A stretch of 64,000 nt of DNA from an uncultured Acidimicrobiia bacterium (GTDB taxonomy: Bacteria > Actinomycetota > Acidimicrobiia > IMCC26256 > JAENVU01), in assembly GCA_963765075.1 (NCBI GenBank), contig CAVXVA010000001.1, forward strand, positions 549,448 through 613,447. The letters are read 5' to 3'. The stretch's first letter is position 1; every line of letters starts with the position of its first letter. The position numbers and the translations under genes are program-made. The notes under the pieces were generated by a model. The model saw only the letters and a list, made by a program, of their open reading frames with translations. It made no database searches and was not told the origin of the DNA. Positions 12,747 to 61,130 of this stretch are shown here, one piece after another.

Positions 12747-12769
12747 GGGCCGGTAGCATACGCAGCCCC

Positions 12770-13357: not shown

Positions 13358-14088
13358 CCACTTCGATTTCGCCGACGCCCCTGCCGACGCCGGAGCGTGT
13401 CCTGGCCATCGGCGCGCATCCTGACGACATCGAGTTCGGCTGCGGAGGGACCCTCGCGAAATGGGCCGCCGCCGGCGCCGACATCCACTTCCTCGTCCTC
13501 ACCGATGGATCGAAGGGAACTTGGGACGTCGGCGACGACCTCTCGGTGCTCGTGCACACCCGACGCGCCGAAGCGCGCGAGGCCGCACGCACTCTCGGGA
13601 ACGGGACGGTCCACTTCGGCGACTTCGTCGACGGCGAACTCGAGAGTGATGAGGCTGGCCGGCTCGTAGTGTGCCGAACGATCCGCGAAGTCCGGCCCGA
13701 CGTCGTCGTCGGCCACGACCCGTGGAAGCGGTATCGCCTGCACCCAGATCATCGTCACGCCGGTTGGATCACCGTCGACGGGCTCGTCGCCGCGCGCGAC
13801 CCCCACTTCTTTCCCGGCATCGGCGGACACCACCATCGACCGGAGCTCTTGTTGCTGTTCGAGGCCGACGATCCCAACCACGTCGAGCCGATCGACGAGA
13901 CGATCGCCACGAAGGTCGCCGCACTTCTCTGCCACCGCAGTCAGTGGCTCTCGACCATGGACATCGATCCCGCGGCCGGCGACCAACCCGGCGAACATGC
14001 GGCCTTCGCCCGCCGAGTTGCCGAGCGGGCCCGCGTGTCCGGGTCGACCCAGCTCGGCGAAGAATTCCGCCTGCTGCGGGATCTCTAG
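13354..14088 (+). CDS. PIG-L family deacetylase (LmbE-like)
   Basis: VLAIGAHPDDIEFGCGGTLAKW and HPDHRHAG motifs. The start overlaps the cofC stop by 4 nt. Confidence 0.85.
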   Translation: MTTSISPTPLPTPERVLAIGAHPDDIEFGCGGTLAKWAAAGADIHFLVLTDGSKGTWDVGDDLSVLVHTRRAEAREAARTLGNGTVHFGDFVDGELESDEAGRLVVCRTIREVRPDVVVGHDPWKRYRLHPDHRHAGWITVDGLVAARDPHFFPGIGGHHHRPELLLLFEADDPNHVEPIDETIATKVAALLCHRSQWLSTMDIDPAAGDQPGEHAAFARRVAERARVSGSTQLGEEFRLLRDL

Positions 14089-42577: not shown

Positions 42578-43664
42578 ATGGCGCACGAAGTTCGCGGGGT
42601 CGTGGCCCGCGGCAAGGGGCAACCGGTCACGATCGAAACCATCGTGGTGCCCGATCCCGGCCCGGGTGAAGCACTGATCGACGTGCAGGCCTGTGGGGTC
42701 TGTCACACCGACCTCCACTACCGGGAGGGCGCGATCAACGACGAGTTTCCGTTCCTGCTCGGGCACGAGGCCGCCGGTGTGGTGTCGGCGGTCGGCCCCG
42801 ATGTGAGCTCGGTCGGGCCGGGTGATTTCGTGGTCCTCAATTGGCGGGCCGTGTGCGGCGAGTGCCGGTCGTGTCGCCGGGGCAAGCCGTGGTACTGCTT
42901 CAACACCCACAACGCGACCCAGCCGATGACCCTGGCGGACGGTCAGCCGCTGACCCCAGCCCTCGGGATCGGGGCCTTCGCGGAGAAGACGCTCGTCGCC
43001 GCCGGCCAGGCCACCAAGGTCAACCCGGCGGCGAGCCCGGCCGCGGCCGGGCTCCTCGGCTGTGGCGTGATGGCCGGCCTCGGCGCCGCGATGCACACCG
43101 GTGAGGTCCAGCCCGGTGATTCGGTCGCAGTGTTCGGATGCGGCGGAGTGGGCAACGCGGCGATCGTCGGGGCGCGCCTGGCCGGGGCCGCCACCGTGAT
43201 CGCCATCGACCTCGATCCCAAGAAGCTCGAGTTGGCACACGCAGTTCGGCGCGACCCACACCGTCGACGCGAGCGCGGGCGATGTGGTGGAGGCGGTCCG
43301 TGCCCTCACCGACGGCAACGGCGCCGACGTGTGCATCGAGGCGGTCGGGCGGCCCGAGGTCATGCAGCAGGCCTTCTTCGCCCGGGACCTCGCGGGCACG
43401 TTGGTGCAGGTGGGGGTGCCCGACCCGTCGATGACCATCGAACTCCCGATGATCGAGTTCTTCGGCCGTGGCGGTGCGCTCAAGCCCAGTTGGTACGGCG
43501 ACTGTCTGCCGAGCCGCGACTTCCCGATGCTGATCGACCTCTACCTTCAGGGTCGCCTCCCGCTCGACGACTTCGTCACCGAGACCATCTCGCTCGACGC
43601 GGTCGAGGATGCGTTCCACAAGATGGAACGGGGCGAAGTGCTGCGTTCCGTGGTGGTCCTGTGA
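42578..43664 (+). pseudogene. class III zinc alcohol dehydrogenase (S-(hydroxymethyl)mycothiol/glutathione dehydrogenase type); frame broken near 43245
   Basis: [33 protein letters not shown] and [12 protein letters not shown] in frame 2. [35 protein letters not shown].... follows in frame 3. GAGGAGG Shine-Dalgarno before ATG 42578. Confidence 0.85.
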
Positions 43665-44257
43665 GCCGGCTCGATCACGTCGTCACCCACGGCACGTTCT
43701 CGATCGATGGCGAGGACTTCGAGGTCGACAACAACATCTGGATCATCGGCGACGACCACGAGTGCATCGTGATCGATGCCGCGCACGAGGCGGCGCCGAT
43801 CGTCGCGGGCGTCGACGGCCGCCGCGTGGTGATGGTCGTCTGTACCCACGGCCACAACGATCACATCAACGTTGCCGGGGTAGTCGCCGACGCGGTGGGC
43901 GCGCCGATCGCGATCCATCCGGACGACCGCATGCTCTGGGATGTCGTCCATCCCGGCCGCGCACCCGACCAGGCCATTGCCGATGGCGACACGTTCCGCG
44001 TCGGCGGCACCACCCTCCGGGCGCTGCACACGCCGGGACATTCACCCGGCGGGGTCAGCCTCTACGACGAAGCGGGCGGGCAGGTCTTCTCCGGCGACAC
44101 GTTGTTCAAGGGCGGACCCGGCGCCACCGGCCGTTCGTTCTCCGACTACGACACGATCATGGCGTCGATCCGGACGCGGTTGTTCACGCTGCCCGCCGAG
44201 ACCGTGGTCCACACCGGTCACGGTGACGACACGACGATCGGTCAGGAAGCCGAGTAA
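43661..44257 (+). CDS. MBL-fold metallo-hydrolase
   Basis: The GTG overlaps the ADH stop (GTGA). THGHNDH motif and ..TPGHSPGG... The ADH + MBL pair mirrors the mycobacterial mscR-downstream arrangement. Confidence 0.8.
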
Positions 44258-45693
44258 CCGTCGTTGCGGACGCCGACGTACCCGCCGTTGTACGAGCCCA
44301 ATCCCCGCCAGCGGTCGAACGGCGCGTATCCGAGATTGCGAGGGGCGGGTGCCGCGCCGTAGCGGTGGATGCCCCCGAACCCGTCGAGCACGGCGTAGCC
44401 GTCTCCGCCCGGGGTAATGACGATGTCGCGGGCGATGTCGAACCCGAAGGCCGGTGAGCCCAGCTTGGCGGCCGTTCCGAACTTCCAGACGGTGCCGAAG
44501 CCGTCGAGCACGACCGCGCCCTTCCCGTCGAGTGTGACCGCCAGCGACCGGGCGATATCCCAGCCCGACCAGTAGGGGCCCACGCCGGGCACGCGTCTCG
44601 CGGTCCCCGCCACATGGATGCCACCGAACCCGTCGAGGAGGTAATAGCCCGCGCCATCGGGCGTGAGGACGATGCTGCGGGCGATGTCGAACCCGAAGTA
44701 CGGGCCCCGCACGTTGCGCAGCGGCCCGGTCGCGGCCGAGCCGAACAGATGGACGCCGCCCATCCCGTCGAGCACCACGTACCCGTTCCCGTCGGGCGTC
44801 GAGACGATGTCGCGGGCGATGTCCCAGGGGAATCTGGCCGAGCCGTGATTCACCGCGCTCCCGACCGACCGGACCGAACCATCACCGTTCAGCAGCCAGT
44901 AGCCACCAGTGGTCGGGGCGACCGCGCGACCGCCGTGGCGAATCGCGAGCGGACAGTCACGCGCTTCGCCGGCACCGAACGCGAGCCGGTCCGGCGGGCA
45001 GTCGCCGTTGAGTCCGTTGAAGACCAGCATCCGGTTGTACATCTTGAGCACTTCGGTGCCGTAGGTCGGGGCGCTCGCCCACTTGCCGGGACCACCCATC
45101 TGGTTCCAGGTGGGGGCGGTGCCCTTGGCGAAGAAGTGGTCGTAGTTGTAGATACCCAGGGCGGCGTCGAGCACACCGTTACGAAGGCCGTACCACTCGA
45201 GGACCGGCGGGTTCGACAGGGTCGCGGCGCGCGAGGTCGGATCCGCGAAGTTCTTCAGGTGTTGGATCTGAGCCCGAACACCGAGTCGCGCCGACGGGAA
45301 CTGGCGACCCGAGTTGCACGAGTCGCAGGCGCCCATGCCCGCGTAGTTGAAGTTCGACGGTTTGACGATGCTGCCCACGAACCCGAGGTACCCCGTCTCG
45401 AGAATCGACTGGGCGAAGGCGATGTCACCGCGGACGCCTTCGCGCAGCCCCTCTTCGAGGTAGTAGCTCGCGAACTCGTCGATCGAGACCGGTAGCGCCG
45501 GCGTCTTCCCGGTGGCCCGGTACCAGTTGGCCAGTTGTGTCGCATTCAGACGGATCGGACCCATCACGGGAACCCCGGCCGACACGGCGCCGGCCGGCGT
45601 GGCCGATTCGAGCACGGGTGAGATGCCGACGACCCCCGTGGTGACGACGGCGCTCACGATCAGGACACGGAGGAAGCTGGTGGCGGTACGCAT
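44242..45693 (-). CDS. secreted glucosaminidase-domain peptidoglycan hydrolase with a C-terminal 5-6 bladed repeat (beta-propeller-like) domain
   Basis: Signal peptide [17 protein letters not shown]... [21 protein letters not shown] glucosaminidase-like core. Then repeats of about 43 aa with the pattern (F/W)DIAR(D/S)IV.TPDG.GY.VLDG.GG.H. AAGGAA Shine-Dalgarno before ATG 45693. Confidence 0.75.
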
Positions 45694-45767
45694 TGCATTC
45701 CTTATCGGGGAGTCAGGCCCACCAGTTGAGCACGCATCGTGACCATCGCGTCGGATCCGACTCACCG

Positions 45768-46358
45768 TCAGTGGCCCGAGGCATCCTCGATACCGCTGGA
45801 AACATGGACGGACACCGCATACCGGCCACCATCGAACTCCGCGCCGGCCCAGGTGGCGTAGCGCTCGGACACCTCGAGGCCGGCCGCGCCGGCGCAGCGA
45901 TCGAACGCGTCGAGCGCCGCCGGGGATTCGACCTGAAAGCCGGAAATCAGTCGCCCACCCACCCCGAGATGGCGAGCGAGGTTGGCCAGCACCGCGGATT
46001 CGGTCCCCGGGGCGAGAAAGATCATGACGTTGCCGGCCGCGACCACGACATCGAACGAGCGAGCGAGGTCGACCGTCACGAGATCGGCGTGGTGCCACTC
46101 GATCGCGGGTGCGCGCTCACGCGCGTGGGCGACGAATCCGGCATCGAGATCTACACCGACGACATCGATCCCCCGTCGGTGCAGTTCGCGAGCGACCCGC
46201 CCGGTTCCACAACCCGCGTCGAGGACACTCGCCGGCGCGTACCGCATGACGAAGTCGGCCTCACCGTGGGGGTTCTCGCCCGATGTCACGAGATCGTTCC
46301 ACCGAGCGTCGTAGTCGGCCGCCGAAGGTCGGTCTTCGCCGGCCCAGCGCGTCGTCAC
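45768..46358 (-). CDS. class I SAM-dependent methyltransferase
   Basis: VLDAGCGTGRVA motif I and DVVVAAGNVM. GTG start 2 nt after the GT-C gene stop. Confidence 0.8.
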   Translation of the reverse strand: MTTRWAGEDRPSAADYDARWNDLVTSGENPHGEADFVMRYAPASVLDAGCGTGRVARELHRRGIDVVGVDLDAGFVAHARERAPAIEWHHADLVTVDLARSFDVVVAAGNVMIFLAPGTESAVLANLARHLGVGGRLISGFQVESPAALDAFDRCAGAAGLEVSERYATWAGAEFDGGRYAVSVHVSSGIEDASGH

Positions 46359-46360
46359 GA

Positions 46361-47914
46361 TCAGGCCGCGGAACGAGGCCGGGTCGGGCGCGCCGACGGT
46401 GGCGACGCGAGCCGGGTCGGCGGGTTGCGTTCGTAGACCACGATGCCGTCGATCTCGCGCACTCGTCGGTAGGAATGGTTCACGTAGGCGCTGAACTCCG
46501 GAAGCGACGACATCGGGTGGTACTGCGATCCGCGGATCGCCGCCGGCGTCGAGTCCAGGATGTAGCGCGGCGCGCGAATCCGCAGATCCTCCATCAACAT
46601 GATGCGCGCACCCGGCGTCGGGGCGTCGGCTTCTGCGTCACCGGGCGGGCGTCCGCCCCAGTCGCCGAGGTAGAACCCGCTCGACAGGAACCGCGTGGCC
46701 GGACGCGCGCCGGAGGCCCAGTAGATCTCCGGCAAATGGCCCCAGACGAAGACCCGGTCGGTCGGACGCAAGCGGTGTTCGAGGAACGTGCTCACCCGCT
46801 GATACTTCGGTTCGTCACCCCACGGCCGGAACAGGAAGCCGACTGCCGCGAACCCACAAGCAGTCACGAGCGATGCCGCAACGGTGCGGCGAGCCCACAC
46901 GGCGGGCCGCTTCGCCAGGGCGCCGGCACTGATCAGGCACAGAGGCGGGAGCAGTTGCAGGTAGTAGTGCCCGAAGAATCGAAACCCGACCGCGACCGAC
47001 AACGCGGCGGACAGCAACCAGATCCAAAGGTCGGTGTCGGTCCCCTGCGCGCGGTGGCGCCAGGCGGTCGGCACCGTCCAGAGGATCGGGAGATTGCAGG
47101 CGATGAACGCGAACGTCATCACGGCGAACAATCCCGCGACGTAGGCCGACACCGAACCCAGGCCGAAGTACGAGCCGTTGCCGGCCACCGCCCAGAACAC
47201 GAGATCCCCGGGGCCGACCAACAGCGCCGCGATCAGGAGCGGCAGGGCAAAGGCCAGCAGCCCGCGGCGAACGCCGCCGGGCGATCGACGCTTCCAGAGG
47301 AGGTAGCCGACGGGCAGCAGGGTGGCGGCGCCCGTCTGTTTCGCCAAGGTCGCAACCGCCACCGCGAACCCCGCGCCGCGGGGCCGGTCGCGCGCGGCCA
47401 AGACCACTGCGGCGGTCATCGCGGGCAGCATGAACACTTCGAAGTTGGCCGCTTGCCCGTCCTGGGGAGCAAACGCGACGGATGCCCCCACGAACAGCAG
47501 CGCCGCGATCCAACCGGCCGACTCACCCCACCGGCGGCGCGCCTCGGAGGCCAGCAACAGCGCGGTGAAGGCCACGGCCAACATCGCCACGACGCGGACG
47601 GACCAGAGCGCCGAACTGCCGACCACCGCGAACGTGGCCGCGTAGAGGTACGGCACCAACGGCGGCTTGCGATCGGTGGCCTCCTGGTAGAGCGAACCGC
47701 CGTCGCGGATGACCTGGGCCTGGGTCGCCAGGAACGTCTCATCGGAGTTGAACACGTCGACAAAGAAGGCGGGGAGCCGGAGCGCGAACGTCAGGAGCAG
47801 CACGGTCACGACCAACGGCCACCGGCGCCGGGGCGAGAGCGCGTCGGGCCGGAGATCCGGTGCAGCAGTTGTGAGGTCGGAGGTCACCGTCGCCCTTCGC
47901 GGCCGGTCGATCAC
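46361..47914 (-). CDS. GT-C fold glycosyltransferase (ArnT / PMT_2, GT39/GT83-like)
   Basis: 517 aa, polytopic. An early loop SDETFLATQAQVIRDGGSLYQEATDRKPPLVPYLY resembles the ArnT/PMT first periplasmic loop. Soluble C-terminal 130 aa. Confidence 0.75.
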   Translation of the reverse strand: MIDRPRRATVTSDLTTAAPDLRPDALSPRRRWPLVVTVLLLTFALRLPAFFVDVFNSDETFLATQAQVIRDGGSLYQEATDRKPPLVPYLYAATFAVVGSSALWSVRVVAMLAVAFTALLLASEARRRWGESAGWIAALLFVGASVAFAPQDGQAANFEVFMLPAMTAAVVLAARDRPRGAGFAVAVATLAKQTGAATLLPVGYLLWKRRSPGGVRRGLLAFALPLLIAALLVGPGDLVFWAVAGNGSYFGLGSVSAYVAGLFAVMTFAFIACNLPILWTVPTAWRHRAQGTDTDLWIWLLSAALSVAVGFRFFGHYYLQLLPPLCLISAGALAKRPAVWARRTVAASLVTACGFAAVGFLFRPWGDEPKYQRVSTFLEHRLRPTDRVFVWGHLPEIYWASGARPATRFLSSGFYLGDWGGRPPGDAEADAPTPGARIMLMEDLRIRAPRYILDSTPAAIRGSQYHPMSSLPEFSAYVNHSYRRVREIDGIVVYERNPPTRLASPPSARPTRPRSAA

Positions 47915-48004
47915 GATCGGAGGAGAACTCTAGGCCGACCGTCCTCACCGGTCGCGGCGCAGCGCCGCATCGGTGGGTCGGTCGGATGGCATGATCGAGC
48001 CTTC

Positions 48005-50275
48005 ATGGCTCTCCGTCGGCGGACTGTCGCCTCCGCGCTCCTCGTCCTGGTCGGGCTGGGCGGCCCCCTCAGCCCCGCACTGGCCCGACCGGCTGCGGCG
48101 GCGGACCAACGCCCGGCGGCGGCCCGGAGCCTGTTGATCATCAGCCTCCCCGCCACCGCCTGGATCGATCTGCGCGACGACCGGCCACCGAACCTGACGT
48201 CGATCTTGCGATCGAGCGCGATCGCGAACCTCGCCACCCGATCGGTGCGATCGCGTACCGAACCGGGCGTCGGCTACCTGGCGTTCGGCACCGGGACGCG
48301 CTCATTGGCCGGCGCGGACTCCGCCGGGGAGAACCTCGCGCCCACCGAGACCTTGGCCGGGCAGCGAGCGACCTCGGTGTTCCAGACCCGCACCGGTGAT
48401 CGGATGGTTCGTGGCATCGGCGCGATGAACTGGCCCAGCATCGTGACCCAGAATCTCGACACGTCCTACGAGGCTGAGCCGGGAGCACTGGGCCAGGCTC
48501 TGCGCGACCGTTCGATCGGGCGCCGAGTCATCGCCAACGCCGACGAGCAGGATCGCACCGGCACGGTGTTCCATCGCGAGGCGGCGCTGACGTTGATGGA
48601 CACCACCGGCCGGGTCCCGGGCCGGGTCACGAAGTTGCTCGTCGCCGATCCGGCCGCGCCCTACGGGGTGCGGCTCGATGCCGATGCGGTCATGAACGCG
48701 TTTCCCGCCGACTTCGGCACGCGCCGTCAGGTGGTCATGGTCGAGGCGTCGGACCTCGCGCGCGCCGACTCGATCCGGCCGATGGCCACGCCCGAACAAC
48801 GAAGCGTCCTGCACTCCCAGGCGCTCGCGACCACCGACGCGCTCGTGGGCCGACTCCTCGAGCGGGTCGACCTGACCCGTGACGCGGTGGTCATCGTTGC
48901 GCCGTATCACAGCGGCCGCGTCCGCACCCTGACCGTCGCCGCCATCCACGCGCCCGGAATCGATCCGGGCACCCTGGAATCTGCGACCACGCGCCGCGCC
49001 GGGTTCGTCCAGATCGTGGATCTTGCGCCCACGGTGCTCGATCTGCTGGGTCAGGAACGGCCCGAATCCATGGAAGGTCGACCCGCGCGATTCATTTCCG
49101 ACGACGAGACCTACCGGGACCGGGTGGACTGGCTGGTCCGGCTCGACCGCGCCGCCCAGTTCCGCGACGCGACGATCGGCAAGGCCACGGCCACGCTGGT
49201 CACGACCACGATCGTGCTGGTCGTGATCACCATCCTCGGATTCCAGTGGTACCGCCGGCGGTGGTTCATCGTGGCCATGCGCGCCGCGTCCCTCACGTTC
49301 CTCGCGTGGGTGCTGGCGACGTTCGTGGCGGGCGCGCTGCCGATCTTTCGTTGGGGCACCGGGCCCTATTTCCTCATCGTCACCGCCATCGCGATCGGCA
49401 TTGCGGCCGCGGCCACCGTGCTGGGTCGGGGCCATCCGATCGATCCGATCTTGATCGTCCTCGGGGCCGTCATCGCCCTGCACCTCGGCGATCTCGTGAC
49501 CGGCGCGCACCTCGAGCTCAACACGGTGTTCGGCTATTCACCCACCGTCGGGATCCGGCTCGCCGGCATCGGAAACCCGGGCTCGGCCCAGCTCAGCGCG
49601 GCCGCCTTGCTCTTCGTTGCGCTGCTCCCCGCCCGGGTCTCGGAACGCCGGAACTGGATGGGCCATCTGATCCTGATCGTCACGTTCGTCATCGTGGGTG
49701 CGCCGATGTTCGGGCAGGACTTCGGTGGCGCGCTGACCCTGGGCCCGACGCTCGCCGTGTGGTGGTGGTTGCGTTCGGGCCGGACGGTTCGGGTCCGCAC
49801 CGTCGCGATGATCGTGGGGATCCTCGCCGCGTCCGGGCTGATCGTCGGGCTCGTCGATCTCACCCGACCGTCGAACCAACGCACCCACATCGGGCGGCTC
49901 TTCGAACGGATTGGCGACCACGGGATCGGTGAACTCTTCGGCGTGGTAGGGCGCAAGGCGTCGCTCATGATCGGGACCTTCTCGAACACGGCGTGGGTGT
50001 TGCTCGTGATCAGCGTGCTGGTCTGGCTCGTGCTCGCGAGTCGGCGGAGCGATGTGCTCGAACGGATCCTGACCTGGATTCCGTCACTCCGACCCGGGCT
50101 CATTTGCTTCGCGATCCTGGTCGGGCTCGGTACCGCGTTGAACGACTCGGGGGTCCAGGTCACCGGCATCATGCTCACGACGTTGCTGTGCGTGCTCGTG
50201 GGACTCGGCTCCCACGTGGTCGAGCCGGAGCCGGCTACCGAGGCTGCACCAGAGCTCGCGCGTTCTCCCGCATGA
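48005..50275 (+). CDS. large membrane protein: N-terminal exported alkaline-phosphatase-superfamily-like domain + C-terminal polytopic membrane domain
   Basis: Signal-like MALRRRTVASALLVLVGLGGPLSPALA. LLIISLPATAWIDL, VMVEASDL and QIVDLAPTVLDLLG resemble AP/sulfatase-fold strands. After about residue 385 there are 10 or more hydrophobic segments. The first 570 codons of the 1330-aa track ORF are antisense to the GT-C gene and were rejected. Confidence 0.65.
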   Translation: MALRRRTVASALLVLVGLGGPLSPALARPAAAADQRPAAARSLLIISLPATAWIDLRDDRPPNLTSILRSSAIANLATRSVRSRTEPGVGYLAFGTGTRSLAGADSAGENLAPTETLAGQRATSVFQTRTGDRMVRGIGAMNWPSIVTQNLDTSYEAEPGALGQALRDRSIGRRVIANADEQDRTGTVFHREAALTLMDTTGRVPGRVTKLLVADPAAPYGVRLDADAVMNAFPADFGTRRQVVMVEASDLARADSIRPMATPEQRSVLHSQALATTDALVGRLLERVDLTRDAVVIVAPYHSGRVRTLTVAAIHAPGIDPGTLESATTRRAGFVQIVDLAPTVLDLLGQERPESMEGRPARFISDDETYRDRVDWLVRLDRAAQFRDATIGKATATLVTTTIVLVVITILGFQWYRRRWFIVAMRAASLTFLAWVLATFVAGALPIFRWGTGPYFLIVTAIAIGIAAAATVLGRGHPIDPILIVLGAVIALHLGDLVTGAHLELNTVFGYSPTVGIRLAGIGNPGSAQLSAAALLFVALLPARVSERRNWMGHLILIVTFVIVGAPMFGQDFGGALTLGPTLAVWWWLRSGRTVRVRTVAMIVGILAASGLIVGLVDLTRPSNQRTHIGRLFERIGDHGIGELFGVVGRKASLMIGTFSNTAWVLLVISVLVWLVLASRRSDVLERILTWIPSLRPGLICFAILVGLGTALNDSGVQVTGIMLTTLLCVLVGLGSHVVEPEPATEAAPELARSPA

Positions 50276-51447: not shown

Positions 51448-52659
51448 TCAGATGGTGGCGTGGTCGGTGAGCCACGCGAGCATCTCGACGTAGATGTCGA
51501 GGATCCGATCGCCGTAGTGGTCGGCCGTCGCCCAGGTGTGGGTCAAGCCGTTCCAGGTCGGCACTCGGCCCTTCAGGAAGTGGGTATCGAGCTTGGCGTA
51601 CACCGGCGGCGGGTTCAGCTGCGCGTTCTTCAGGTTGGCGTCGGCGTAGACCCGCAGCAGCTGCATCTGCGCCCGCACGCCGACCTGTGCGCTCGGGAAC
51701 CCGCTGCCGGTCGCGCAACTGTCACACGCGTTGATGCCGGCGAAGTTGTTGTCGACCGGCGTCAGCTGGCCACCGTCGGGGAAGTAGAACGCGCCAGTTT
51801 CGAGGATCGATTGGGCAAAGGCGATGTCGCCGCGCACCTGGGCGGCCTGGCCCTCCTCGATGAAGTACTGGGCCAATGTGGCCATCGGCACCGTGATGCG
51901 GGCGCTGCGGCGATGGGTGGCACTGAACCAACTCGCGAGCTCACTCGGCCCGATGATCGAGCGGCTCATGATCGGCGTGTTCACGCCCGCCGCGATCGAT
52001 TGCCAACGCGACAACCAGAACCGCGCCCGAGACACTCCGGCCTGGAGCTCGTTGATCCGGCCCTCCCGCTTCGGGATCTCCGCCTGGAGGGTTTCTCCGA
52101 GTTGATGCAACCGCACGTGCTCGTCGCCGGCATCGCGAGCCGCTCGTTCCGCCTCGCGCCGGACTTTGAGCGCCTGCTTGAGGGCCTTGGTCTGGCGGGC
52201 GCCGACTTCGCTGATGAGCTTCTGGCGGTACCCGAACTCGCTCACCGAACGCGATTCGATCAACGAGGCGACACCCGCGGGCCGGCTTGCACCGCGATAG
52301 AACGCGGCGGCCAACGAAGCCACGTCGTCCCGCGCCCGGCGGGCGTCGCGCTGAGCATCGAGTTCGGCCTGGGCCAAGCGATCGGCCTCCGCCAGCGCGG
52401 CATCTTCGGCGCGGCGGGTCGTGATCAACCGTTGCATCGTGGTTGCCCGGGCCGTGGTCTCCGTCGTGATCTCGGCGGTCCGCGAGTCCACCAGTGCCGA
52501 CAACGAGGTGATGCGTTCGGCGGGACTCCGGCCGGCGGCGGGCGCAACCGGACGCGCCGCCGATGCGACCGGGGTCAGAAGGCCGAGCGCGAGTGCACCT
52601 ACCAGGGCGAACGTCGCGCCGACGGAGCAAGTTCGTCGCACGGGAGCAGTCATCGACAT
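51448..52659 (-). CDS. secreted coiled-coil + glucosaminidase-domain peptidoglycan hydrolase (paralogue of the 44242..45693 catalytic domain)
   Basis: Signal peptide ..ALALGLLTPVASA. An Ala/Arg/Glu-rich coiled-coil of about 200 aa. Then [47 protein letters not shown], closely parallel to [44 protein letters not shown] in the other gene. Confidence 0.75.
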   Translation of the reverse strand: MSMTAPVRRTCSVGATFALVGALALGLLTPVASAARPVAPAAGRSPAERITSLSALVDSRTAEITTETTARATTMQRLITTRRAEDAALAEADRLAQAELDAQRDARRARDDVASLAAAFYRGASRPAGVASLIESRSVSEFGYRQKLISEVGARQTKALKQALKVRREAERAARDAGDEHVRLHQLGETLQAEIPKREGRINELQAGVSRARFWLSRWQSIAAGVNTPIMSRSIIGPSELASWFSATHRRSARITVPMATLAQYFIEEGQAAQVRGDIAFAQSILETGAFYFPDGGQLTPVDNNFAGINACDSCATGSGFPSAQVGVRAQMQLLRVYADANLKNAQLNPPPVYAKLDTHFLKGRVPTWNGLTHTWATADHYGDRILDIYVEMLAWLTDHATI

Positions 52660-52801
52660 GGGGACCAGGGATCTTCACACAGCTGCCTGCTCCGCACCGC
52701 GCGGCTGCAGATTTCCGTTCAAGATCTTCCGGGCATAGTGCCGAAACCTCTCATAGCTCCCCGATCTGTGTATCCGTCATTTCACGCTCACGAGGGCCCT
52801 T

Positions 52802-54136
52802 TTGTTCATCTTCTTCCTGCAATTGCGCGACACGTTTCATGGTGGACGGCTGTACGTCTTCAGCATCCTGGTCGCACTCACCTGGGCCCTGTGGGCGATC
52901 AAAGTCCACCTCTCTCGGAACTACCGACCGTGGGTGGGTGACTACGCGACCACCGCATCGGTGATCATCCCCGTGGTGGACGAACCCGTCGGGCTCTTCC
53001 ACGAAGTGCTCGACCACATCACCGAGCAGTCTCCGCATCAGGTGATCGTGGTGATCAACGGCCCTCGCAACGAGAAGCTCGAGAAGGTCTGCGACAACTA
53101 TCCGGGAGTCCAGTGGATCTGGACGACGACCCCGGGGAAGCGCAATGCCATCCGCGAAGGCCTCGAGGTGTGTACCGGTGAGATCGTCGTCCTCGTCGAC
53201 AGCGACACGATCTGGACGACCGACACGCTCCGCGAACTGGTCAAGCCCTTCGCCGATCCGATCGTCGGCGGGGTCACGACCAATCAACGCATCATCGATC
53301 CGGAGCGCAACGTCCTGACTCGTTGGGCCGACTGGCTCGAGAACGTGCGGGTTCAGTACTCGATGCCGGCGATGAGCGTTCTCGGCCAGGTCGGGTGTCT
53401 GCCCGGTCGCACGATCGCGTTTCGGCATGCGGTGCTCGCCGACGCGATGCCGGCGTTCCTCGGTCAGCGCTTCCTCGGGATCTTCCTCGAGGTCAGCGAC
53501 GACCGGACGTTGACCAACCTCTGCCTCAAGCAGGGGTACCACGCGGTCTACCAATCGACGAGTCGGGTCTACACCGACGCGCCGGTCGGGATGCGCAAGA
53601 TGGCCAAACAACAGATGCGGTGGTCGCGCGGCAGCCAGTACAACACCTTGCGGATGTTGCCCTGGATGATGCGCAACACTCCGACGCTCGCGTTGTTCTA
53701 CGTGGCCGATATCGTGACGCCGTTCCTCTGGCTCGCCACGGTGACGGGCGTGATCGTCCGCCTGCTCCTCGGTGAGAACGTCAACTTCTACGAGGGCATC
53801 ACGTTCGGCTACGGCGCCGTGGTCGGGACCGTGCTCATCGTGACGCTGACGCTGCTGGCCATGTGGCTGTCGGCCTACATCCGCCAGGCCCGCCACTTCG
53901 AGGACCACCCGCAGGACCTGTGGTTGTTGCCCGCGTTCACGTTGCTCAACACGTTCATGCTCATGCCGATCCGCATCTGGGGATTCATGCGGATGGCCCG
54001 CAACGACGGCTGGGGCACCCGGGCCAACGCGTTCAGCGGCGATCGTCAAGCCAAGCGCCGAGTCAACCCGCTCGGCGCCGTTCCGTACATCCTCGGCGCA
54101 AGCCTCTTCCTTGCAGGAGTTGCCTACCATGGCTAG
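52802..54136 (+). CDS. processive family-2 glycosyltransferase, hyaluronan-synthase / NodC / chitin-synthase-like
   Basis: VLVDSDT, VSDDRTLTNLCLKQGYHAVYQSTSRVYTDAP and KQQMRWSRGS run parallel to the class I HAS blocks (DSDT, GDDRxLTN, YQST..C.TDVP, QQxRWxKS). TM segments at both ends. TTG start with GAGGG 5 nt upstream. Confidence 0.8.
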   Translation: MFIFFLQLRDTFHGGRLYVFSILVALTWALWAIKVHLSRNYRPWVGDYATTASVIIPVVDEPVGLFHEVLDHITEQSPHQVIVVINGPRNEKLEKVCDNYPGVQWIWTTTPGKRNAIREGLEVCTGEIVVLVDSDTIWTTDTLRELVKPFADPIVGGVTTNQRIIDPERNVLTRWADWLENVRVQYSMPAMSVLGQVGCLPGRTIAFRHAVLADAMPAFLGQRFLGIFLEVSDDRTLTNLCLKQGYHAVYQSTSRVYTDAPVGMRKMAKQQMRWSRGSQYNTLRMLPWMMRNTPTLALFYVADIVTPFLWLATVTGVIVRLLLGENVNFYEGITFGYGAVVGTVLIVTLTLLAMWLSAYIRQARHFEDHPQDLWLLPAFTLLNTFMLMPIRIWGFMRMARNDGWGTRANAFSGDRQAKRRVNPLGAVPYILGASLFLAGVAYHG

Positions 54137-55658
54137 CCCTCGACAACTCAAGGTGATGGGCACCTTGCTCGCCGGCATCGGGGTCTTCGTCTACACCTCG
54201 CCGGCGGCACCGAACCCCGACACCCTCAGCGCTGCGCCCGTGAGCAGCCGGGTCGGCGCGGGCGAACTCGGTCCGGCTGCGGCGAGCCGCGCCGAGAACG
54301 CGCGCCAGAACGCACGACCCGAGGCGTCAACGAACAAGGACGCGCTCGACGGCGGCAGCACCCGGGCCGATGGTGGGGCCAAGACGACGCCGGCGACCGC
54401 CGTCGCTCGCCCGGGTACGTTGGGCGTCGCGGGGCGACGTGCACCGGCCTCCCGCGCCACGACCACGACGACCGCGCCCGTCGGGGTGACGCCCCCACGG
54501 TGCAGCAGCTTCCGCTGGCAACAAGACGCGCAGGCCGCGTACGTGGCCGACCTGTCCGACCCGTACGGGTTGGACGGGCCGCCCGGCGCATTCGACGACG
54601 ACGGCATCGCTTGCTCGCTCCTCCCGGTCGATCCGGCGCGACCACCGTCGACGCCCTCCGGCGCGAAACCACCCGCGCCACCCAAGCCCGAAGGCCTGCC
54701 CGAAACCCCGACGTTGACCCAGCTGCTCGCGCCGGTCGACAACTACTACGGCGTGTCGACGCCTCAGGCGCCGTACGACTGGAAGGACTTCCAGATCTTC
54801 TCGGCCGCGGCGAAGAAACTGCCGAGCATGGTCGAGTTCTTCCAGGGATGGGACCGGGAGTTCGCGGCCACCGAAATCACCGAGACCTGGCGGCGCGGTG
54901 CCCTGCCACTGATCTCGTGGGAGCCCCGGCCGACGGTGCAGCCGGTCGGCCCCGACAGCGACAACACTGCCGAACCCGGGTACACGCTCGCATCGATCAT
55001 CGACGGCACCCACGACGACTACATCGACCGGTACGCGGTCGCGGTTCGGGACCTGGGTCTCCCGGTGGCCATTCGCTTCGCCCATGAGATGAACGGCAAC
55101 TGGTTCCCGTGGAGCGAAGAACGCAACGGCAACCGTCGCGGCGAGTTCGTGCAGGCGTGGCGCCACGTGCACGACCGGTTCACCACGATCGGCGCCACGA
55201 ATGCCATCTGGGTCTGGAGCCCGAACGTGATCACCGCCCGGCCCGGCGTGCGGCTCGCGCCGCTCTACCCCGGCGACCACTACGTGGACTGGATGGGGAT
55301 GGTCGGCTACTACCGCCGCGTGTATCTCGACGACGCCGGAGGGCCCAAGGCACCGACGTTCGACAACACCTACGGCGGCACGTTGGCCGAGCTCCGGGCG
55401 ACGGCGCTGAAGCCCATCGTGATCACCGAACTCGGAGCCACCGAGGTCGGCGGGAACAAGCCCGCCTGGATTCGCAGCCTGTTCCAAGGTCTCGCCGACA
55501 ACCCGGACGTGATCGGCTTCGTGTGGTTCAACCACAGTGTGAACGGCAACGACTGGCGGATCGAGTCCTCGGTCGCGGCGGCCGGAGCGTTCTCGGACAA
55601 CGTCACCCACCCGAGGTATCGGGAAGGCAAGATCCGGCCACCCAAACCCGGCACCTGA
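54129..55658 (+). CDS. membrane-anchored GH26-like glycoside hydrolase with an Excalibur-type Ca-binding module
   Basis: The ATG overlaps the GT2 stop by 8 nt. TM segment, low-complexity linker, then CSSFRWQQDAQAAYVADLSDPYGLDGPPGAFDDDGIAC (Excalibur-like). Catalytic domain with RFAHEMNGNWFPW and ITELGATE, which are GH26-type acid/base and nucleophile contexts. Confidence 0.7.
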   Translation: MASPRQLKVMGTLLAGIGVFVYTSPAAPNPDTLSAAPVSSRVGAGELGPAAASRAENARQNARPEASTNKDALDGGSTRADGGAKTTPATAVARPGTLGVAGRRAPASRATTTTTAPVGVTPPRCSSFRWQQDAQAAYVADLSDPYGLDGPPGAFDDDGIACSLLPVDPARPPSTPSGAKPPAPPKPEGLPETPTLTQLLAPVDNYYGVSTPQAPYDWKDFQIFSAAAKKLPSMVEFFQGWDREFAATEITETWRRGALPLISWEPRPTVQPVGPDSDNTAEPGYTLASIIDGTHDDYIDRYAVAVRDLGLPVAIRFAHEMNGNWFPWSEERNGNRRGEFVQAWRHVHDRFTTIGATNAIWVWSPNVITARPGVRLAPLYPGDHYVDWMGMVGYYRRVYLDDAGGPKAPTFDNTYGGTLAELRATALKPIVITELGATEVGGNKPAWIRSLFQGLADNPDVIGFVWFNHSVNGNDWRIESSVAAAGAFSDNVTHPRYREGKIRPPKPGT

Positions 55659-55693
55659 TCTCGCGCGCAGGACACCTCTCGTAGTCTCGGGCG

Positions 55694-56842
55694 ATGCGCG
55701 AACGATTCCCCGGCATCCACCGTGACTGGGCTCGCTTCGACGGGCCGGCCGGCACCCAGATGGTCGATACCGCGATCGACGCGATGGCGGAGTTCCTGCG
55801 CTCGGGTGACAACGCGAACGGGCACGGCGTGTTCGCGGCGTCGACAGTGAGTACCGATCTGGTCGCGCGCGCCCGCGCCCGTGTCGGTCGGCTCCTCGGC
55901 GCCGATGCCGAGGGCATCGCGTTCGGCGCCAACATGACGACGCTGACCTTCGCGTTCACCCGGGCCCTTTCCCGCACGCTCGGGCCCGGTGACGAAGTCA
56001 TCGGCACCCGGCTGGATCACGATGCGAACGTCACGCCGTGGGCACTCGCATGCCGGGACGTCGGCGCGGACCACCATCTCGTGTCGTTCGATCCGACCAC
56101 CGGTCGGCTGGATCCCGATGCCGTCATCGACCGCATCGGACCGCGCACGCGGTGGATCGCGATCACGGCCGCATCGAACGCGCTCGGGACCGTGCCCGAC
56201 GTCGCGGCCGTCGTTGCGGGCGCCCACGCGCGCGGCGTTCGGGTCTTCGTCGACGGTGTTCACCTGGTCCCGCACGCCGCGGTCGACCTGGCGACCATGG
56301 GCAGCGACGTCTTCGTCACGTCTCCGTACAAGTGGTACGGACCCCATTCGGGCCTCATGTGGATCGCGCCCGATCTGCGCGACGCGATCGAGCCGTACAA
56401 GGTGCGGCCGGCCTCGGATCAGGCGCCCGAGCGCTGGGAGACCGGCACGCTCTCGTTCGAGAACATCGCGGCCATCGATGCCGCCGCCGGATTCCTCCTC
56501 GACACGGGTCTGGAACGCGTCGCGGCCGTCGAATCCGAACACTTCGCCGTGCTGCTCGAAGGGCTGCTCGCCCACCCGGCGGTCACCGTGCTCGGGCCCC
56601 ACGACCTGGTCGACCGAACGCCGACCGTCTCGTTCACCGTCGCCGGCCACCATCCCGATGCCGTCGCCGCCCACCTGGCCGCCCACCGGATCGCGGTCTG
56701 GAGCGGCAACTACTACGCGGTCGAGACCATGGCGGCGCTGGGTCTTACCGAAACCGGCGCGATCCGGGCGGGACTCTCCCTGTACACCGACGCCGACGAC
56801 GTTGCCCGGCTGCTGGAAGCACTCTCCGTCCTCACCAGCTGA
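55694..56842 (+). CDS. class V aminotransferase, cysteine desulfurase-like protein
   Basis: 382 aa. ..RFDGPAGTQMV.., ..ITAASNALGTVPDV.. and SPYKWYGPH (lysine in the SxYK context). Confidence 0.75.
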   Translation: MRERFPGIHRDWARFDGPAGTQMVDTAIDAMAEFLRSGDNANGHGVFAASTVSTDLVARARARVGRLLGADAEGIAFGANMTTLTFAFTRALSRTLGPGDEVIGTRLDHDANVTPWALACRDVGADHHLVSFDPTTGRLDPDAVIDRIGPRTRWIAITAASNALGTVPDVAAVVAGAHARGVRVFVDGVHLVPHAAVDLATMGSDVFVTSPYKWYGPHSGLMWIAPDLRDAIEPYKVRPASDQAPERWETGTLSFENIAAIDAAAGFLLDTGLERVAAVESEHFAVLLEGLLAHPAVTVLGPHDLVDRTPTVSFTVAGHHPDAVAAHLAAHRIAVWSGNYYAVETMAALGLTETGAIRAGLSLYTDADDVARLLEALSVLTS

Positions 56843-58878: not shown

Positions 58879-60204
58879 TCACCCGTGACAGTGCTTGGTC
58901 TTCCGGCCGCTGCCGCACGGACACGGATCGTTCCGGCCGGCCGTCGCGAACACCGTCATCACCTCGCCGGCGTGCCCACCCCGCCGGATCGCGTCCACCA
59001 TGAGCTTCATGACCCCATCGATGTGGGTGAAGAAGGCGAGGTACCCGGCGCACAGGTGGTTGAGCCCAGCCTCTCCCGTCGCCGTGCGCTGAACCCGGTT
59101 CTTCGGACACTCACCCCGGCATGCGAACAGGACCGCGCACTCCCGACACTGGGCGGGAAGCGAATCCCGTTTCGCAGTGCCGAACTCGCGCTGCGCGGGT
59201 GCGGCGAGGAGGTCGACCATGTGGGTGTCCATGATGTTGCCCAGGAGGTGGCCGGGATCGACGAAGTGATCGCACGAGTAGAGGTCGCCGTTGTGTTCGA
59301 GTGCGACCGCGTTGCCACAGGTCTCCCCGAAGATGCACAACGCGGCCGGTGCGCCGTACCAGGAGGCCAACGCCGCGTCGAACATCTGGACGAACACGTC
59401 GCCGACGTCGTGACGCACCCACTCGTCGAACACGGTGACCAGGAACCGACCCCAGGCCTCCGGGTCGACCGAACGAGCCGTGAGTTCCAGACTCGTCTCG
59501 TCGACGCGTTCGACGATGGGGATGAACTGTACGAACGATGCACCGAGTTGGTCGCGGAAGTAGCGATACACGTCGAGCGGCGCGGCTTGATTCGCGGCAT
59601 GCACCGTGCAGAGGACGTTCCACTCGACGCCCGCTCGCTTCAGGCGTTCCAACCCGGCCAGCACTCGATCGGAACTGGGCCGACCCTGTTTGTCGACGCG
59701 GTACTCGTCATGAAGCGCGGGCGGGCCGTCGATGCTGATCCCGACGAGGAATCGCTTCTCCCGCAGGAAATCACACCATTCGTCGGTCAGCAGGGTGCCG
59801 TTGGTCTGGATCGTGTGATGCAGGGTGCGCGCAGGACCCGCGCATTCCTCGGCGAACGCCACCGCCCGGCGGAAGAAGTCGACGCCCATGAGTGTCGGTT
59901 CGCCGCCCTGCCAGGCAATCGTGATCTCGGAGCCCACCTGCGATTCGATGATCTGGCGGATGTAGGTCTCCATCACCGGCTCCGCCATGCGGAACCGGTC
60001 GCCCGGGTACAACGACTCCTTCTCCAGGAAGAAGCAATAGGAACAGTCCAGGTTGCAGATCGGCCCGGTCGGTTTCGCCAAGACGTGAAACTGCGGCGGC
60101 GCGCTCAACGGTCTCGGGTCGGGCGGTCTCGGGTCAGGCGGTCTCGGGTGGGGAAGGCGCGGTGGTCCACCGCGGGGCCCGAGCTCGATCGGCACATCCA
60201 CCAT
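58879..60204 (-). CDS. radical SAM/SPASM anaerobic sulfatase-maturase-like enzyme with a C-terminal SEC-C motif
   Basis: CNLDCSYCFF (CX3CX2C), GGEPTL, CGNAVALEHNGDLYSCDHFV, CRECAVLFACRGECPKNR, and the tail NDPCPCGSGRKTKHCHG. The start is ambiguous between ATG 60204 and TTG 60108 (MSAPPQFHVLAKP..). TTG is favoured, because the intervening tandem repeats would otherwise use three rare AGA codons. Confidence 0.8.
   Translation of the reverse strand: MVDVPIELGPRGGPPRLPHPRPPDPRPPDPRPLSAPPQFHVLAKPTGPICNLDCSYCFFLEKESLYPGDRFRMAEPVMETYIRQIIESQVGSEITIAWQGGEPTLMGVDFFRRAVAFAEECAGPARTLHHTIQTNGTLLTDEWCDFLREKRFLVGISIDGPPALHDEYRVDKQGRPSSDRVLAGLERLKRAGVEWNVLCTVHAANQAAPLDVYRYFRDQLGASFVQFIPIVERVDETSLELTARSVDPEAWGRFLVTVFDEWVRHDVGDVFVQMFDAALASWYGAPAALCIFGETCGNAVALEHNGDLYSCDHFVDPGHLLGNIMDTHMVDLLAAPAQREFGTAKRDSLPAQCRECAVLFACRGECPKNRVQRTATGEAGLNHLCAGYLAFFTHIDGVMKLMVDAIRRGGHAGEVMTVFATAGRNDPCPCGSGRKTKHCHG
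60109..60153. repeat. 15-bp tandem repeat x3
   Basis: CGGTCTCGGGTC-GGG / CGGTCTCGGGTC-AGG / CGGTCTCGGGTG-GGG. On the minus strand the array abuts the TTG candidate start of the radical SAM gene. Confidence 0.9.
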
Positions 60205-60215
60205 TGCGACCGACT

Positions 60216-61130
60216 TTAGGTGGGTCCCGTCCGGCGGAGGTCGGCGGGATACCGGTCGATCCCCTCCGGGATCCGGTCCGCGAACGTGAAGATCATGGTC
60301 TGGGTGCCGTAGGCGACCAGCCCCGTGTCGGGATCCCACAACTCGATCTCCACCGAGGCGTACCCGTCGCCCGCTCGGCGCGCGAAGTTGCGCATCAGGA
60401 TCCACTCCGAACGCGCCACCCCGGTGATGTGCACCGTGAGGTCGGCGCTCGGCCCGTACCAGGGATAGCCGTGGTCGGGACCCATGCGCTCGGCCACCGC
60501 GCCGGGCATCGTGTCGCAGAGACACACCAGCGCGAGCGGATCGATCGAGCCGTCGTCGAGACGGGGCACCTCGTCGAAGCGTTGGAAGGTTTGGCGCTCG
60601 CTGCTCTCGGGGTCGTAGTGCTCCCACGGCGGATGCCCGACGACCGGCCGACCTTCGATGTGATGCTCCCAGATCGGGAAGGGTCCGTCGTCGAACTCGA
60701 ACTCCACCCCGTCGGGCACGCCATCACGAAACCGCGGCAGGGTCTGCGGGTCGGGGAAGTCAGGGGGCGTCAGATCGGTGAACTCGAACCCGGGCCGCGG
60801 CGCGCCGAAGACCGCGATCGCGGTCAGGCCCGCCGGGCGGCCGGGCGTGGTGGTGGTCGCGAGGGCCTGGGCCACCGACCGGCCTTGGCGCAAGACCGTC
60901 ACGTCGATGTCGGCCCGGCCCGATTCGACGGGCGCGGCGAACACACAGGACACCGATCGCAACGGCATGTCGACGTCGCCGAGCGCGTGACTCATGGCCC
61001 GGACCGTGGCGGCCAACGAGATGCCCCCCTGAGGAACGTTGGGCGCGGCCCAGGTGGGGGCGAGGTCGGCGGTGTACCGCCCCGAGGTCTCGGTCTCGAC
61101 GACCGCGGTGTCTCGCTGGAACGAACTCAT
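60216..61130 (-). CDS. acyl-CoA thioesterase (TesB-like double hot-dog family)
   Basis: 304 aa. MSSFQRDTAVVETETSGRYTADL..PQGGISLAATVRAM.. and a second hot-dog half ..LTVHITGVARSEWILMRNFARRAGDGYASVEIELWD... Only the last 304 codons of the 420-aa track ORF are coding. Confidence 0.65.
   Translation of the reverse strand: MSSFQRDTAVVETETSGRYTADLAPTWAAPNVPQGGISLAATVRAMSHALGDVDMPLRSVSCVFAAPVESGRADIDVTVLRQGRSVAQALATTTTPGRPAGLTAIAVFGAPRPGFEFTDLTPPDFPDPQTLPRFRDGVPDGVEFEFDDGPFPIWEHHIEGRPVVGHPPWEHYDPESSERQTFQRFDEVPRLDDGSIDPLALVCLCDTMPGAVAERMGPDHGYPWYGPSADLTVHITGVARSEWILMRNFARRAGDGYASVEIELWDPDTGLVAYGTQTMIFTFADRIPEGIDRYPADLRRTGPT

Follow-up and report, generated by a model that had tools for sequence, protein, structure and literature searches.

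A hyaluronan-synthase-like GT2 and a GH26 hydrolase form a probable, uncharacterised and widespread actinobacterial variant of the synthase-dependent polysaccharide system

Introduction

Synthase-dependent polysaccharide systems, such as those for cellulose, poly-N-acetylglucosamine (PNAG), Pel, alginate and hyaluronan, are few and well catalogued, and another would supply a missing piece in the biology of actinobacterial cell surfaces and biofilms. In the has operon of plasmid pXO1, a hyaluronan synthase (HAS)-type synthase is encoded with a gene that supplies UDP-glucuronic acid (UDP-GlcA), and the pneumococcal type 3 cps3D-cps3S locus has the same layout of synthase plus UDP-glucose dehydrogenase. 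Hyaluronan and the type 3 polymer both alternate beta-1,3 and beta-1,4 bonds. Here we describe a locus in a stretch of 64,000 nucleotides (the window) from an uncultured Acidimicrobiia bacterium, in which the gene for a HAS-like protein of glycosyltransferase family 2 (GT2) overlaps the gene for a membrane-anchored protein of glycoside hydrolase family 26 (GH26). The locus is an uncharacterised, widespread actinobacterial variant of the synthase-dependent polysaccharide system.

The conserved motifs of HAS have been assigned to the metal/UDP site, the catalytic-base helix, the acceptor-positioning Trp and a gating loop that closes on UDP, and activity requires WGTRG/WGTSGRK (PMC11750622). A 2023 HAS review that lists candidate HASs includes no actinobacterial ones. 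We found no published description of the GT2-GH26 pair or of its family in a search that covered few subscription journals and in which absence is not proof.

From the domain identities, motifs, topology, fold relatives and pair conservation observed here we infer processivity, a trimming role and the polymer chemistry. We consider it probable that the locus specifies a processive synthase-exporter with a cognate extracytoplasmic endo-hydrolase, in which a HAS/NodC-type GT2 works with a GH26 and the product is most likely a GlcA-containing alternating beta-1,3/1,4 glycan.

Results

Two overlapping genes conserved as a pair

The window has a GC content of 68%, and the locus is ~97% identical at the protein level to that of an Acidimicrobiia metagenome-assembled genome (L003). 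The two genes and their junction are as follows.

52802..54136, plus strand: GT2 gene, 444 amino acids (aa), TTG start, GAGGG before the start
54129..55658, plus strand: GH26 gene, 509 aa, ATG start, GCAGGAG 8 nt upstream
54129..54136, plus strand: overlap of the GT2 stop and the GH26 start, 8 nt, ATGGCTAG, from direct reading of the sequence

The N-terminus of the GT2 reads MFIFFLQLRDT and homologues share MF(I/V)F(F/L)LQLRDT, and because this N-terminus agrees with all homologues the TTG start is well placed. A stop/start overlap of 8 nt had been noted in a preliminary description of this DNA, made from the letters alone, and it can be read directly as ATGGCTAG. The same 8-nt overlap occurs in four distant genera (Catellatospora, Georgenia, Curtobacterium and Kitasatospora), and the GT2 and GH26 genes are predicted to be translationally coupled through it. 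An antisense open reading frame (ORF) at 52751-54178(-) was dismissed as the usual high-GC artefact.

Relatives of the GT2 number more than 1,400 in the protein collection and are encoded in at least 456 species genomes. The family is confined largely to Actinomycetota and is found on at least one plasmid. Many of its members were automatically named 'hyaluronan synthase' by JGI, and one (P0087) carries the name 'cellobiuronic acid synthase'. We surveyed the neighbourhoods of the best 80 loci, widened to 86 for ORF clustering, which span Acidimicrobiia, Microthrixaceae, Micromonospora, Actinocatenispora, Cellulomonas (C. fimi and C. biazotea), Georgenia, Streptacidiphilus, Nocardioidaceae and others; the pair is also present in Kitasatospora and on a Curtobacterium plasmid. 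A GH26 gene lies directly downstream of the GT2 gene in every surveyed locus with enough sequence, the exceptions to the count being three loci that are incomplete downstream (L014, L037 and L057) and one with the GH26 gene on the opposite strand (L064). All-against-all clustering of the ORFs from the 86 loci left just the GT2 and GH26 families common to 84-86 of them, and the other clusters found in many loci are apparently the same two genes read in alternate frames or antisense. Overall, the two genes adjoin in about 84 of the 86 loci. A search for other conserved neighbours returned merely local synteny of unrelated housekeeping genes (CoA-transferase, EamA, M20 peptidase, SelO and histidine kinase). 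When the survey was reversed and begun from three GH26 relatives, two of the three (Kitasatospora and Schumannella) lay downstream of a GT2 gene, and the third had GH26 paralogues and GT4 genes around it but no GT2. Synthase and hydrolase are conserved neighbours across lineages; as the two-gene module of the preliminary description would lead one to expect, the pair is kept in essentially every locus and in two actinobacterial classes. Since its surroundings are unrelated from one lineage to another, those on the Curtobacterium plasmid included, the pair behaves as an autonomous module that has moved between contexts.

Three of these loci have features of their own. On plasmid pTCL of the alfalfa seed isolate Curtobacterium sp. 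TC1 (NZ_CP081962.1; 164 kb), the genes for GT2, GH26 and a UDP-glucose dehydrogenase overlap at positions 9001-13572 of the locus (L086), with HTTM and DUF5819 genes near the module; in at least this one case the module is plasmid-borne and has a cultured host. A contig labelled 'Candidatus Melainabacteria' (L060, 2220-4839) also has the pair, its proteins being 58% and 52% identical to those of the window; either the contig is actinobacterial and was misbinned, or the pair was transferred beyond the phylum. In Kitasatospora sp. (L091, 4689-9930) the two genes again overlap by 8 nt, and they are joined by another GH26 gene in convergent orientation and by genes for two proteins with no recorded Pfam match. 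This block is flanked by genes for a PRK-family kinase and a GATase/SIS (GlmS-type) protein and by a PGM_PMM (phosphohexomutase) gene, a closeness to sugar metabolism that may be a coincidence of housekeeping synteny.

The GT2 resembles hyaluronan synthases in motifs and fold

The upstream protein belongs to glycosyltransferase family 2 (GT-A, inverting), with four Pfam GT2 families above their gathering scores: PF13641 (85.4 bits, cutoff 27), PF00535 (58.6 bits, cutoff 23.3), PF13632 (57.3 bits, cutoff 27) and PF13506 (43.4 bits, cutoff 21.7). Hydropathy places its hydrophobic helices at aa 15-38, 294-325, 331-363 and 423-442. The size and terminal transmembrane helices had been called HAS-like in the preliminary description, and the length of 444 aa and the arrangement of one helix at aa 15-38 plus a C-terminal set bear this out. 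An AlphaFold2 (AF2) model of the GT2, built with 50 homologues, has a predicted local distance difference test (pLDDT) score of 84.9 and a predicted template-modelling score (pTM) of 0.84. The features of the protein are listed here.

52844..52915, plus strand: N-terminal transmembrane helix, aa 15-38, from hydropathy (helix 19-40 in the AF2 model)
53198..53209, plus strand: DSDT, aa 133-136, DxD metal/UDP-binding motif (D133, S134, D135 and T136 invariant in 50 homologues)
53495..53518, plus strand: SDDRTLTN, aa 232-239, counterpart of HAS GDDR (invariant in the family, 50 homologues)
53609..53623, plus strand: QQMRW, aa 270-274, QxxRW acceptor-positioning motif (Q270, Q271, R273 and W274 invariant)
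54011..54022, plus strand: WGTR, aa 404-407, gating-loop motif (invariant in the family; also in pXO1 HasA)

The sequence blocks that had earlier been aligned with HAS and NodC/chitin synthases are all found, with VLVDSDT at aa 130-136, SDDRTLTN...YQSTSRVYTDAP at aa 232-261 and KQQMRWSRGS at aa 269-278. The DSDT motif is shared with XlHAS1, CvHAS and NodC, SDDRTLTN aligns with GDDRHLTN of XlHAS1 and GDDRRLTN of CvHAS, and QQMRW corresponds to QQTRW in HAS. The GT2 model has just two segments of low confidence, of which the WGTR loop (aa 405-416) is one, and the equivalent gating loop is not resolved in apo HAS. Of the class I HAS motif set listed in PMC11750622 (DxDT, GDDR, QxxRW and WGT(R/S)) every element is present, GDDR in the form SDDR (G to S). 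The string GLYG is absent from the protein by a plain string check that was not alignment-based.

A sequence search of solved structures with the GT2 gives strong matches solely to XlHAS1 (2e-13) and CvHAS (1e-11). A 13-sequence family profile run against the PDB scores 82 bits on CvHAS over profile positions 55-410 and 19 bits on yeast Chs1, and cellulose synthase is absent among its PDB matches. Foldseek searches of the PDB with the GT2 model return HAS for all of the top 13 matches (TM-score ~0.65), followed by an archaeal mannosyltransferase, BcsA and Chs1. On reference proteins the same family profile scores 134 bits for Bacillus anthracis pXO1 HasA, 108 bits for Rhizobium NodC, 58 bits for E. 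coli PgaC and 3 bits for E. coli BcsA, and the GT2 itself falls below cutoff on the CelA (15.9 bits, cutoff 699) and PgaC (57 bits, cutoff 422) models. Hidden Markov models and fold thus place the protein with HAS and NodC rather than with BcsA/PgaC, inside the HAS/NodC/chitin synthase (CHS) grouping to which it had first been assigned. In a crude neighbour-joining tree, with few references, no bootstrap and neither Cps3S, Tts, streptococcal HasA nor CslA included, the GT2 family forms a separate clade that is sister to HAS plus NodC. By 'HAS-like' we refer to the mechanism and architecture of the protein and do not count it as a HAS: judged by sequence and model, its architecture and catalytic cycle would resemble those of a HAS, but its substrate and the chemistry of its channel may be different.

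The partner is a lichenase-type GH26 with a predicted membrane anchor

Pfam GH26 matches the 509-aa protein at 53.3 bits (cutoff 20.2) and matches all 47 sampled homologues, and NCBIfam assigns the protein to no family. Its features are the following.

54153..54209, plus strand: N-terminal membrane/signal anchor, aa 9-27 (hydropathy 1.5-1.6; helix 4-23 in the model)
54501..54614, plus strand: Cys-bounded 38-aa loop, CSSFRWQQDAQAAYVADLSDPYGLDGPPGAFDDDGIAC, Excalibur-like (C125...DDDGIAC162)
54741..55613, plus strand: GH26 (beta/alpha)8 catalytic domain, ~aa 205-495, Lic26A-like (phmmer, Foldseek)
55086..55088, plus strand: E320, predicted acid/base (HEMNGNW), invariant, aligning with HEANGDW of Lic26A
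55428..55430, plus strand: E434, predicted nucleophile (ITELG), invariant, aligning with IIAEFA of Lic26A

The preliminary description had recognised a GH26-like domain by HEMNGNWFPW and ITELG. Both motifs are present, and the two catalytic Glu, E320 and E434, sit on strands 4 and 7 of the (beta/alpha)8 barrel and are invariant, which keeps the protein within clan GH-A, as had been proposed. In Lic26A the acid/base and nucleophile glutamates lie in the HEANGDW and IIAEFA segments. By phmmer the GH26 domain is closest to Lic26A of Clostridium thermocellum CelH (3.5e-29), with mannanases at 4e-9 or weaker and beta-1,3-xylanase at 3e-6. The AF2 model has pLDDT >90 through the barrel, and the top seven PDB matches in Foldseek all contain a Lic26A domain (six Lic26A entries and the fusion 6zpl_C), with E-values of about 1e-22; the match to 2bv9 has an E-value of 2.6e-22, TM-score 0.83-0.86 and 27% identity, and the next subgroup follows at 2.6e-13. 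Sequence and model together assign the domain to the Lic26A (lichenase) type, not the mannanase type. As to lichenase activity itself (EC 3.2.1.73), what these comparisons show is only a relative similarity to Lic26A over mannanases and beta-1,3-xylanases.

An N-terminal hydrophobic segment is present in 47 of the 47 sampled GH26 homologues (700 were retrieved). In the window protein R5 and K8 precede the anchor helix and a low-confidence Ala/Pro/Thr-rich linker follows it, and the protein is predicted to be type-II membrane-anchored. Its sole Cys residues, C125 and C162, bound a loop that ends in DDDGIAC, and this motif is kept in at least 17 of 47 GH26 homologues, distant lineages included. 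The disulfide-bounded loop and the N-in anchor together indicate an extracytoplasmic catalytic domain. The loop had been described as Excalibur-type. The Cys-bounded loop with DDDGIAC is indeed there, but Pfam Excalibur (PF05901) gives no match at E<=10 on either the N-terminal 220 aa or the isolated loop. The same Pfam model is weakly matched in 2 of 47 GH26 homologues (best E 6.8e-4), and in one record the match is marked 'faint'. We therefore call the loop Excalibur-like, a motif-level resemblance below Pfam detection with membership unproven.

Accessory genes give a hint of the polymer

The commonest accessory gene encodes a nucleotide-sugar dehydrogenase, which adjoins the pair in 20 of the 65 loci outside the window's clade. 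These loci belong to both Acidimicrobiia and Actinomycetes and take several arrangements; on plasmid pTCL, the dehydrogenase start overlaps the GH26 stop. The linked dehydrogenases score 337-434 bits on UDP-glucose 6-dehydrogenase models (TuaD/AglM) versus 129-186 on UDP-ManNAc dehydrogenase, and authentic pXO1 HasB has the same score pattern. The polymer had been thought impossible to infer. It is not wholly so, because a UDP-glucose dehydrogenase is the frequent third operon member elsewhere and provides a hint. In the window's own clade no dehydrogenase is linked to the pair; for this lineage a GlcA content has no support, and the polymer chemistry is at its least certain.

Lic26A cleaves the beta-1,4 bond whose -1 sugar is 3-substituted, the same backbone geometry as in hyaluronan and the type 3 polymer. 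On the basis of this specificity and of the recurrent UDP-glucose 6-dehydrogenase, a GlcA-containing alternating beta-1,3/beta-1,4 product is the most likely one, and by analogy the family product is possibly an acidic glycan of this kind, hyaluronan-like or cellobiuronan-like.

Other accessory genes are found in particular lineages. An Acyl_transf_3 plus SGNH (OatA-type) O-acetyltransferase is linked to the pair in Georgenia, Nocardioidaceae and Lapillicoccus (L083, 14288-16417; L073 and L074), which suggests that the polymer is O-acetylated in some lineages. Loci of Micromonosporaceae have a PMT_2 GT-C enzyme and a GH39 as accessory genes.

Genomic surroundings in the window

Upstream, the module is divergently oriented to a gene for a cell-wall hydrolase.

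52660..52801, no strand: divergent intergenic region, 142 bp, between the peptidoglycan-hydrolase gene and the GT2 gene
51448..52659, minus strand: divergent neighbour, 403 aa, secreted or anchored, with a C-terminal glucosaminidase domain (Pfam PF01832, 40.4 bits, cutoff 30.2)

The intergenic region had been described as a lower-GC promoter region of 142 bp, and its length and its GC content of 59% (versus 68% for the window) agree; the promoter is presumably located there. A scan of 52500-55900 found no sigma-70 consensus promoter and no intrinsic terminator, and an Rfam scan of the 5' region, in which riboswitches such as those for c-di-GMP were sought, gave no match.

The divergent neighbour had been taken for a coiled-coil peptidoglycan hydrolase adjacent to the module. 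The glucosaminidase domain supports the enzymatic part of this description, and by a crude test aa 56-215 form a helical region, A/R/E/L-rich and nearly Pro-free, with heptad-like periodicity, but the adjacency is kept only in the window's clade: of the loci compared, the 20 closest, all from Acidimicrobiia, have the gene in synteny, and the remaining 65 do not have it. Further upstream lie a second glucosaminidase-domain protein at 44242-46098(-), a PMT_2 GT-C glycosyltransferase at 46361-47914(-) and, at 48035-50275(+), a 746-aa protein whose soluble N-terminal part is large, which has at least 9 hydrophobic segments (crude hydropathy scan) and which falls in no Pfam or NCBIfam family. These three and an amidohydrolase are likewise syntenic with the pair in the close clade only. 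Since their synteny is confined in this way, the peptidoglycan hydrolase, the amidohydrolase, the PMT_2 enzyme and the 746-aa protein were excluded as members of the core module. The genes at 44242-50275 and the divergent neighbour look like a clade-specific cell-envelope island, and a functional link between island and module is possible and is not supported by wider conservation.

A cysteine-desulfurase-like gene at 55694-56842 was rejected as a module member because the spacing between it and the GH26 gene is not constant in close relatives. Elsewhere in the window, a radical SAM/SPASM protein at 58879-60627(-) has a terminal SEC-C zinc-binding motif, an anaerobic-sulfatase-maturase-like architecture with an unusual C-terminal tag. 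One ORF at 42578-44257(+) contains alcohol-dehydrogenase GroES-like and metallo-beta-lactamase domains and represents a fusion or else two genes joined by read-through in the ORF list.

Discussion

How would such a module work? We propose that GT2 and GH26 make up a self-contained module, coupled in translation, that secretes a polysaccharide in the synthase-dependent way. In it the GT2 would act as a processive class I HAS/NodC-type synthase, made of one subunit and embedded in the membrane. Its cytoplasmic GT-A domain would use UDP-sugars via DSDT, SDDR and QQxRW, its WGTR gating loop would close over the nucleotide, and its own transmembrane channel would extrude the growing chain. A single N-terminal helix would anchor the GH26, and its part outside the cell would comprise the linker, a Ca-type loop closed by a disulfide and a retaining (beta/alpha)8 domain. 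There it could cut the emerging polymer endo-wise for release, for length control or for clearing stalled chains, as BcsZ, CslZ and PgaB do.

Several observations weigh against a HAS-type synthase with a GlcA-containing product. The GT2 family has no close sequence relationship to a proven HAS: identity to HAS is 17-27% (26-27% to pXO1 HasA and 17-19% to XlHAS1 and CvHAS by structural alignment), and pXO1 HasA is ~52% identical to streptococcal HASs (2023 HAS review). The acceptor collar and channel residues of HAS (R287, Y288, F292, R296, C307, W382 and S385; list from PMC11750622) are not kept as a set. In an alignment that is uncertain near aa 188-198, where the GT2 model has low pLDDT, the XlHAS1 collar residues R287, Y288, F292 and R296 align with L179, E180, V184 and M188, and S385 aligns with G277; C199 (XlHAS1 C307) and W274 (XlHAS1 W382) are retained. 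The HAS segment C(I/V)(S/G)GPL is CLPGRT in the GT2. Since neither the collar residues nor this segment is kept, the acceptor and channel chemistry of the GT2 is expected to differ from that of HAS. On the side of the hydrolase, some GH26 relatives adjoin GT4 genes without a GT2. One such locus (L092, 5304-9677) has three GH26 paralogues of the subgroup in a row beside fragmented GT4 genes, so the GH26 subgroup is not exclusive to the HAS-like synthase. To our knowledge no GH26 acts on uronic-acid polymers (CAZy family activities). Lastly, neither the 64 kb of the window nor the surroundings of the pair in any of the 20 closest loci contain a UDP-glucose dehydrogenase gene.

This last observation is the starting point for the alternative that survives best, namely that the polymer in the window's clade is a neutral beta-glycan (mixed-linkage beta-1,3/1,4-glucan, another beta-glucan or beta-mannan) that the GH26 trims and that has no uronic acid. 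The nearest relative of the hydrolase, Lic26A, is a true lichenase on neutral glucan, and about two thirds of the loci outside the window's clade are also without a linked dehydrogenase. However, members with and without a linked dehydrogenase, 55-60% identical to each other, do not differ in any catalytic or channel motif, and one product class is favoured for this reason; moreover, a dehydrogenase gene may lie at another site in the genome. In a reference set without curdlan or mixed-linkage glucan synthases, the cellulose synthase BcsA scores far below HasA and NodC. We regard a neutral product as rather unlikely, and favour the GlcA-containing glycan.

Could the GT2 be a chitin or chito-oligosaccharide synthase of the NodC/CHS type that makes GlcNAc chains? 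Its best NCBIfam model is NodC (TIGR04242, 97.3 bits, full length), Pfam Chitin_synth_2 gives a weak match, and the CLPG(R) segment of the GT2 may correspond to the LPGC segment of chitin synthases. The NodC score is nevertheless far below the equivalog cutoff of 550, and in a control the genuine HasA also has the NodC model as its best match (205 bits), NCBIfam being without a HasA model, so that the match cannot separate HAS from NodC. Neither a NodB-type deacetylase nor a chitinase (GH18/19) accompanies the GT2. Its partner is instead a GH26, and the accessory gene that recurs encodes a UDP-glucose dehydrogenase; together these points make GlcNAc chains improbable.

Slightly more improbable still is that the GT2 is a non-processive enzyme that transfers one sugar onto a lipid carrier (GtrB, DPM synthase or PcManGT type) beside an unrelated, catabolic GH26: PcManGT (6yv7) is significant by sequence and fold, and genes for PMT_2 GT-C enzymes, whose donors are lipid-linked sugars, are close to the pair in the window's clade and directly upstream in Micromonosporaceae, but the PcManGT match is limited to the GT-A domain (aa 47-186), QxxRW, WGTR and the full HAS-like helix bundle are matched over ~470 alignment columns, and a near-universal overlapping GH26 partner in unrelated contexts is unlikely by chance.

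If the synthase-exporter with its GH26 partner is correctly read, the locus would be a compact two- or three-gene cassette for a HAS-type polymer, and the substrate range of GH26 could be widened. A tentative and bolder extension, which we put forward as a possibility only, is that an unrecognised acidic polymer, hyaluronan- or cellobiuronan-like, with GlcA and alternating beta-1,3/beta-1,4 linkages, is produced via a new synthase-exporter family by many Actinomycetota of soil and water, among them Cellulomonas, Micromonospora, Georgenia, Kitasatospora and uncultured Acidimicrobiia. The obligate GH26 would then be the first to cleave a uronic-acid polysaccharide, with a specificity new to GH26, and would be a new kind of bacterial 'hyaluronidase-like' trimming enzyme. 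Cultured hosts exist in Cellulomonas fimi, Micromonospora, Georgenia and Curtobacterium sp. TC1, which makes the identity of the polymer directly testable.

Comparison with known systems

The nearest relatives of the GT2 by sequence and fold are the class I HASs (streptococcal, pXO1 HasA, CvHAS and XlHAS1), with which it shares a single GT2 polypeptide, ~400-450 aa in bacteria, with one N-terminal and several C-terminal membrane helices, the motifs DxDT, (G/S)DDR and QxxRW, the WGTR loop and the acceptor Cys. It differs from them in SDDR versus GDDR, in CLPGRT versus C(I/V)(S/G)GPL, and in not keeping the acceptor/channel residues of interface helix 1 (IFH1). At the level of the operon, many relatives have a UDP-glucose dehydrogenase gene, comparable to hasB, although the window locus has none; the GH26 partner is obligate here, whereas pXO1 hasA-galU-UGDH, the sole has operon examined, encodes no hydrolase. 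Cps3S/Cps3D of Streptococcus pneumoniae type 3 offers a further likeness in its single HAS-related GT2, alternating beta-1,3/beta-1,4 Glc-GlcA polymer and dehydrogenase next door, but no GH26 partner is present there, and we take this likeness of description as a lead.

NodC, with the second-best profile score, is of similar size and topology and has DSDT and QQLRW. In contrast to the GT2, it has GEDR, a pattern scan found no WGTR at the gating-loop position, and the nodABC operon contains a deacetylase and no GH26. The hydrolase is closest by sequence and fold to Lic26A, both catalytic Glu motifs of which are kept. Lic26A, however, is one module of a secreted cellulosomal degrader of plant glucan, whereas the GH26 domain here is predicted to be membrane-anchored and coupled to a synthase, and stands behind a Pro/Ala/Thr linker and a Cys-bounded loop.

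No BcsB-, PgaD-, PilZ- or c-di-GMP-type partner was seen at the GT2-GH26 loci. The arrangement as a whole nonetheless recalls BcsA/BcsZ (GH8), the Streptomyces CslA/CslZ (GH6) and PgaC/PgaB, in each of which a membrane GT2 synthase is encoded with a product-specific extracytoplasmic hydrolase, and differs from all three in the clade of the synthase and in having GH26 as the family of the hydrolase.

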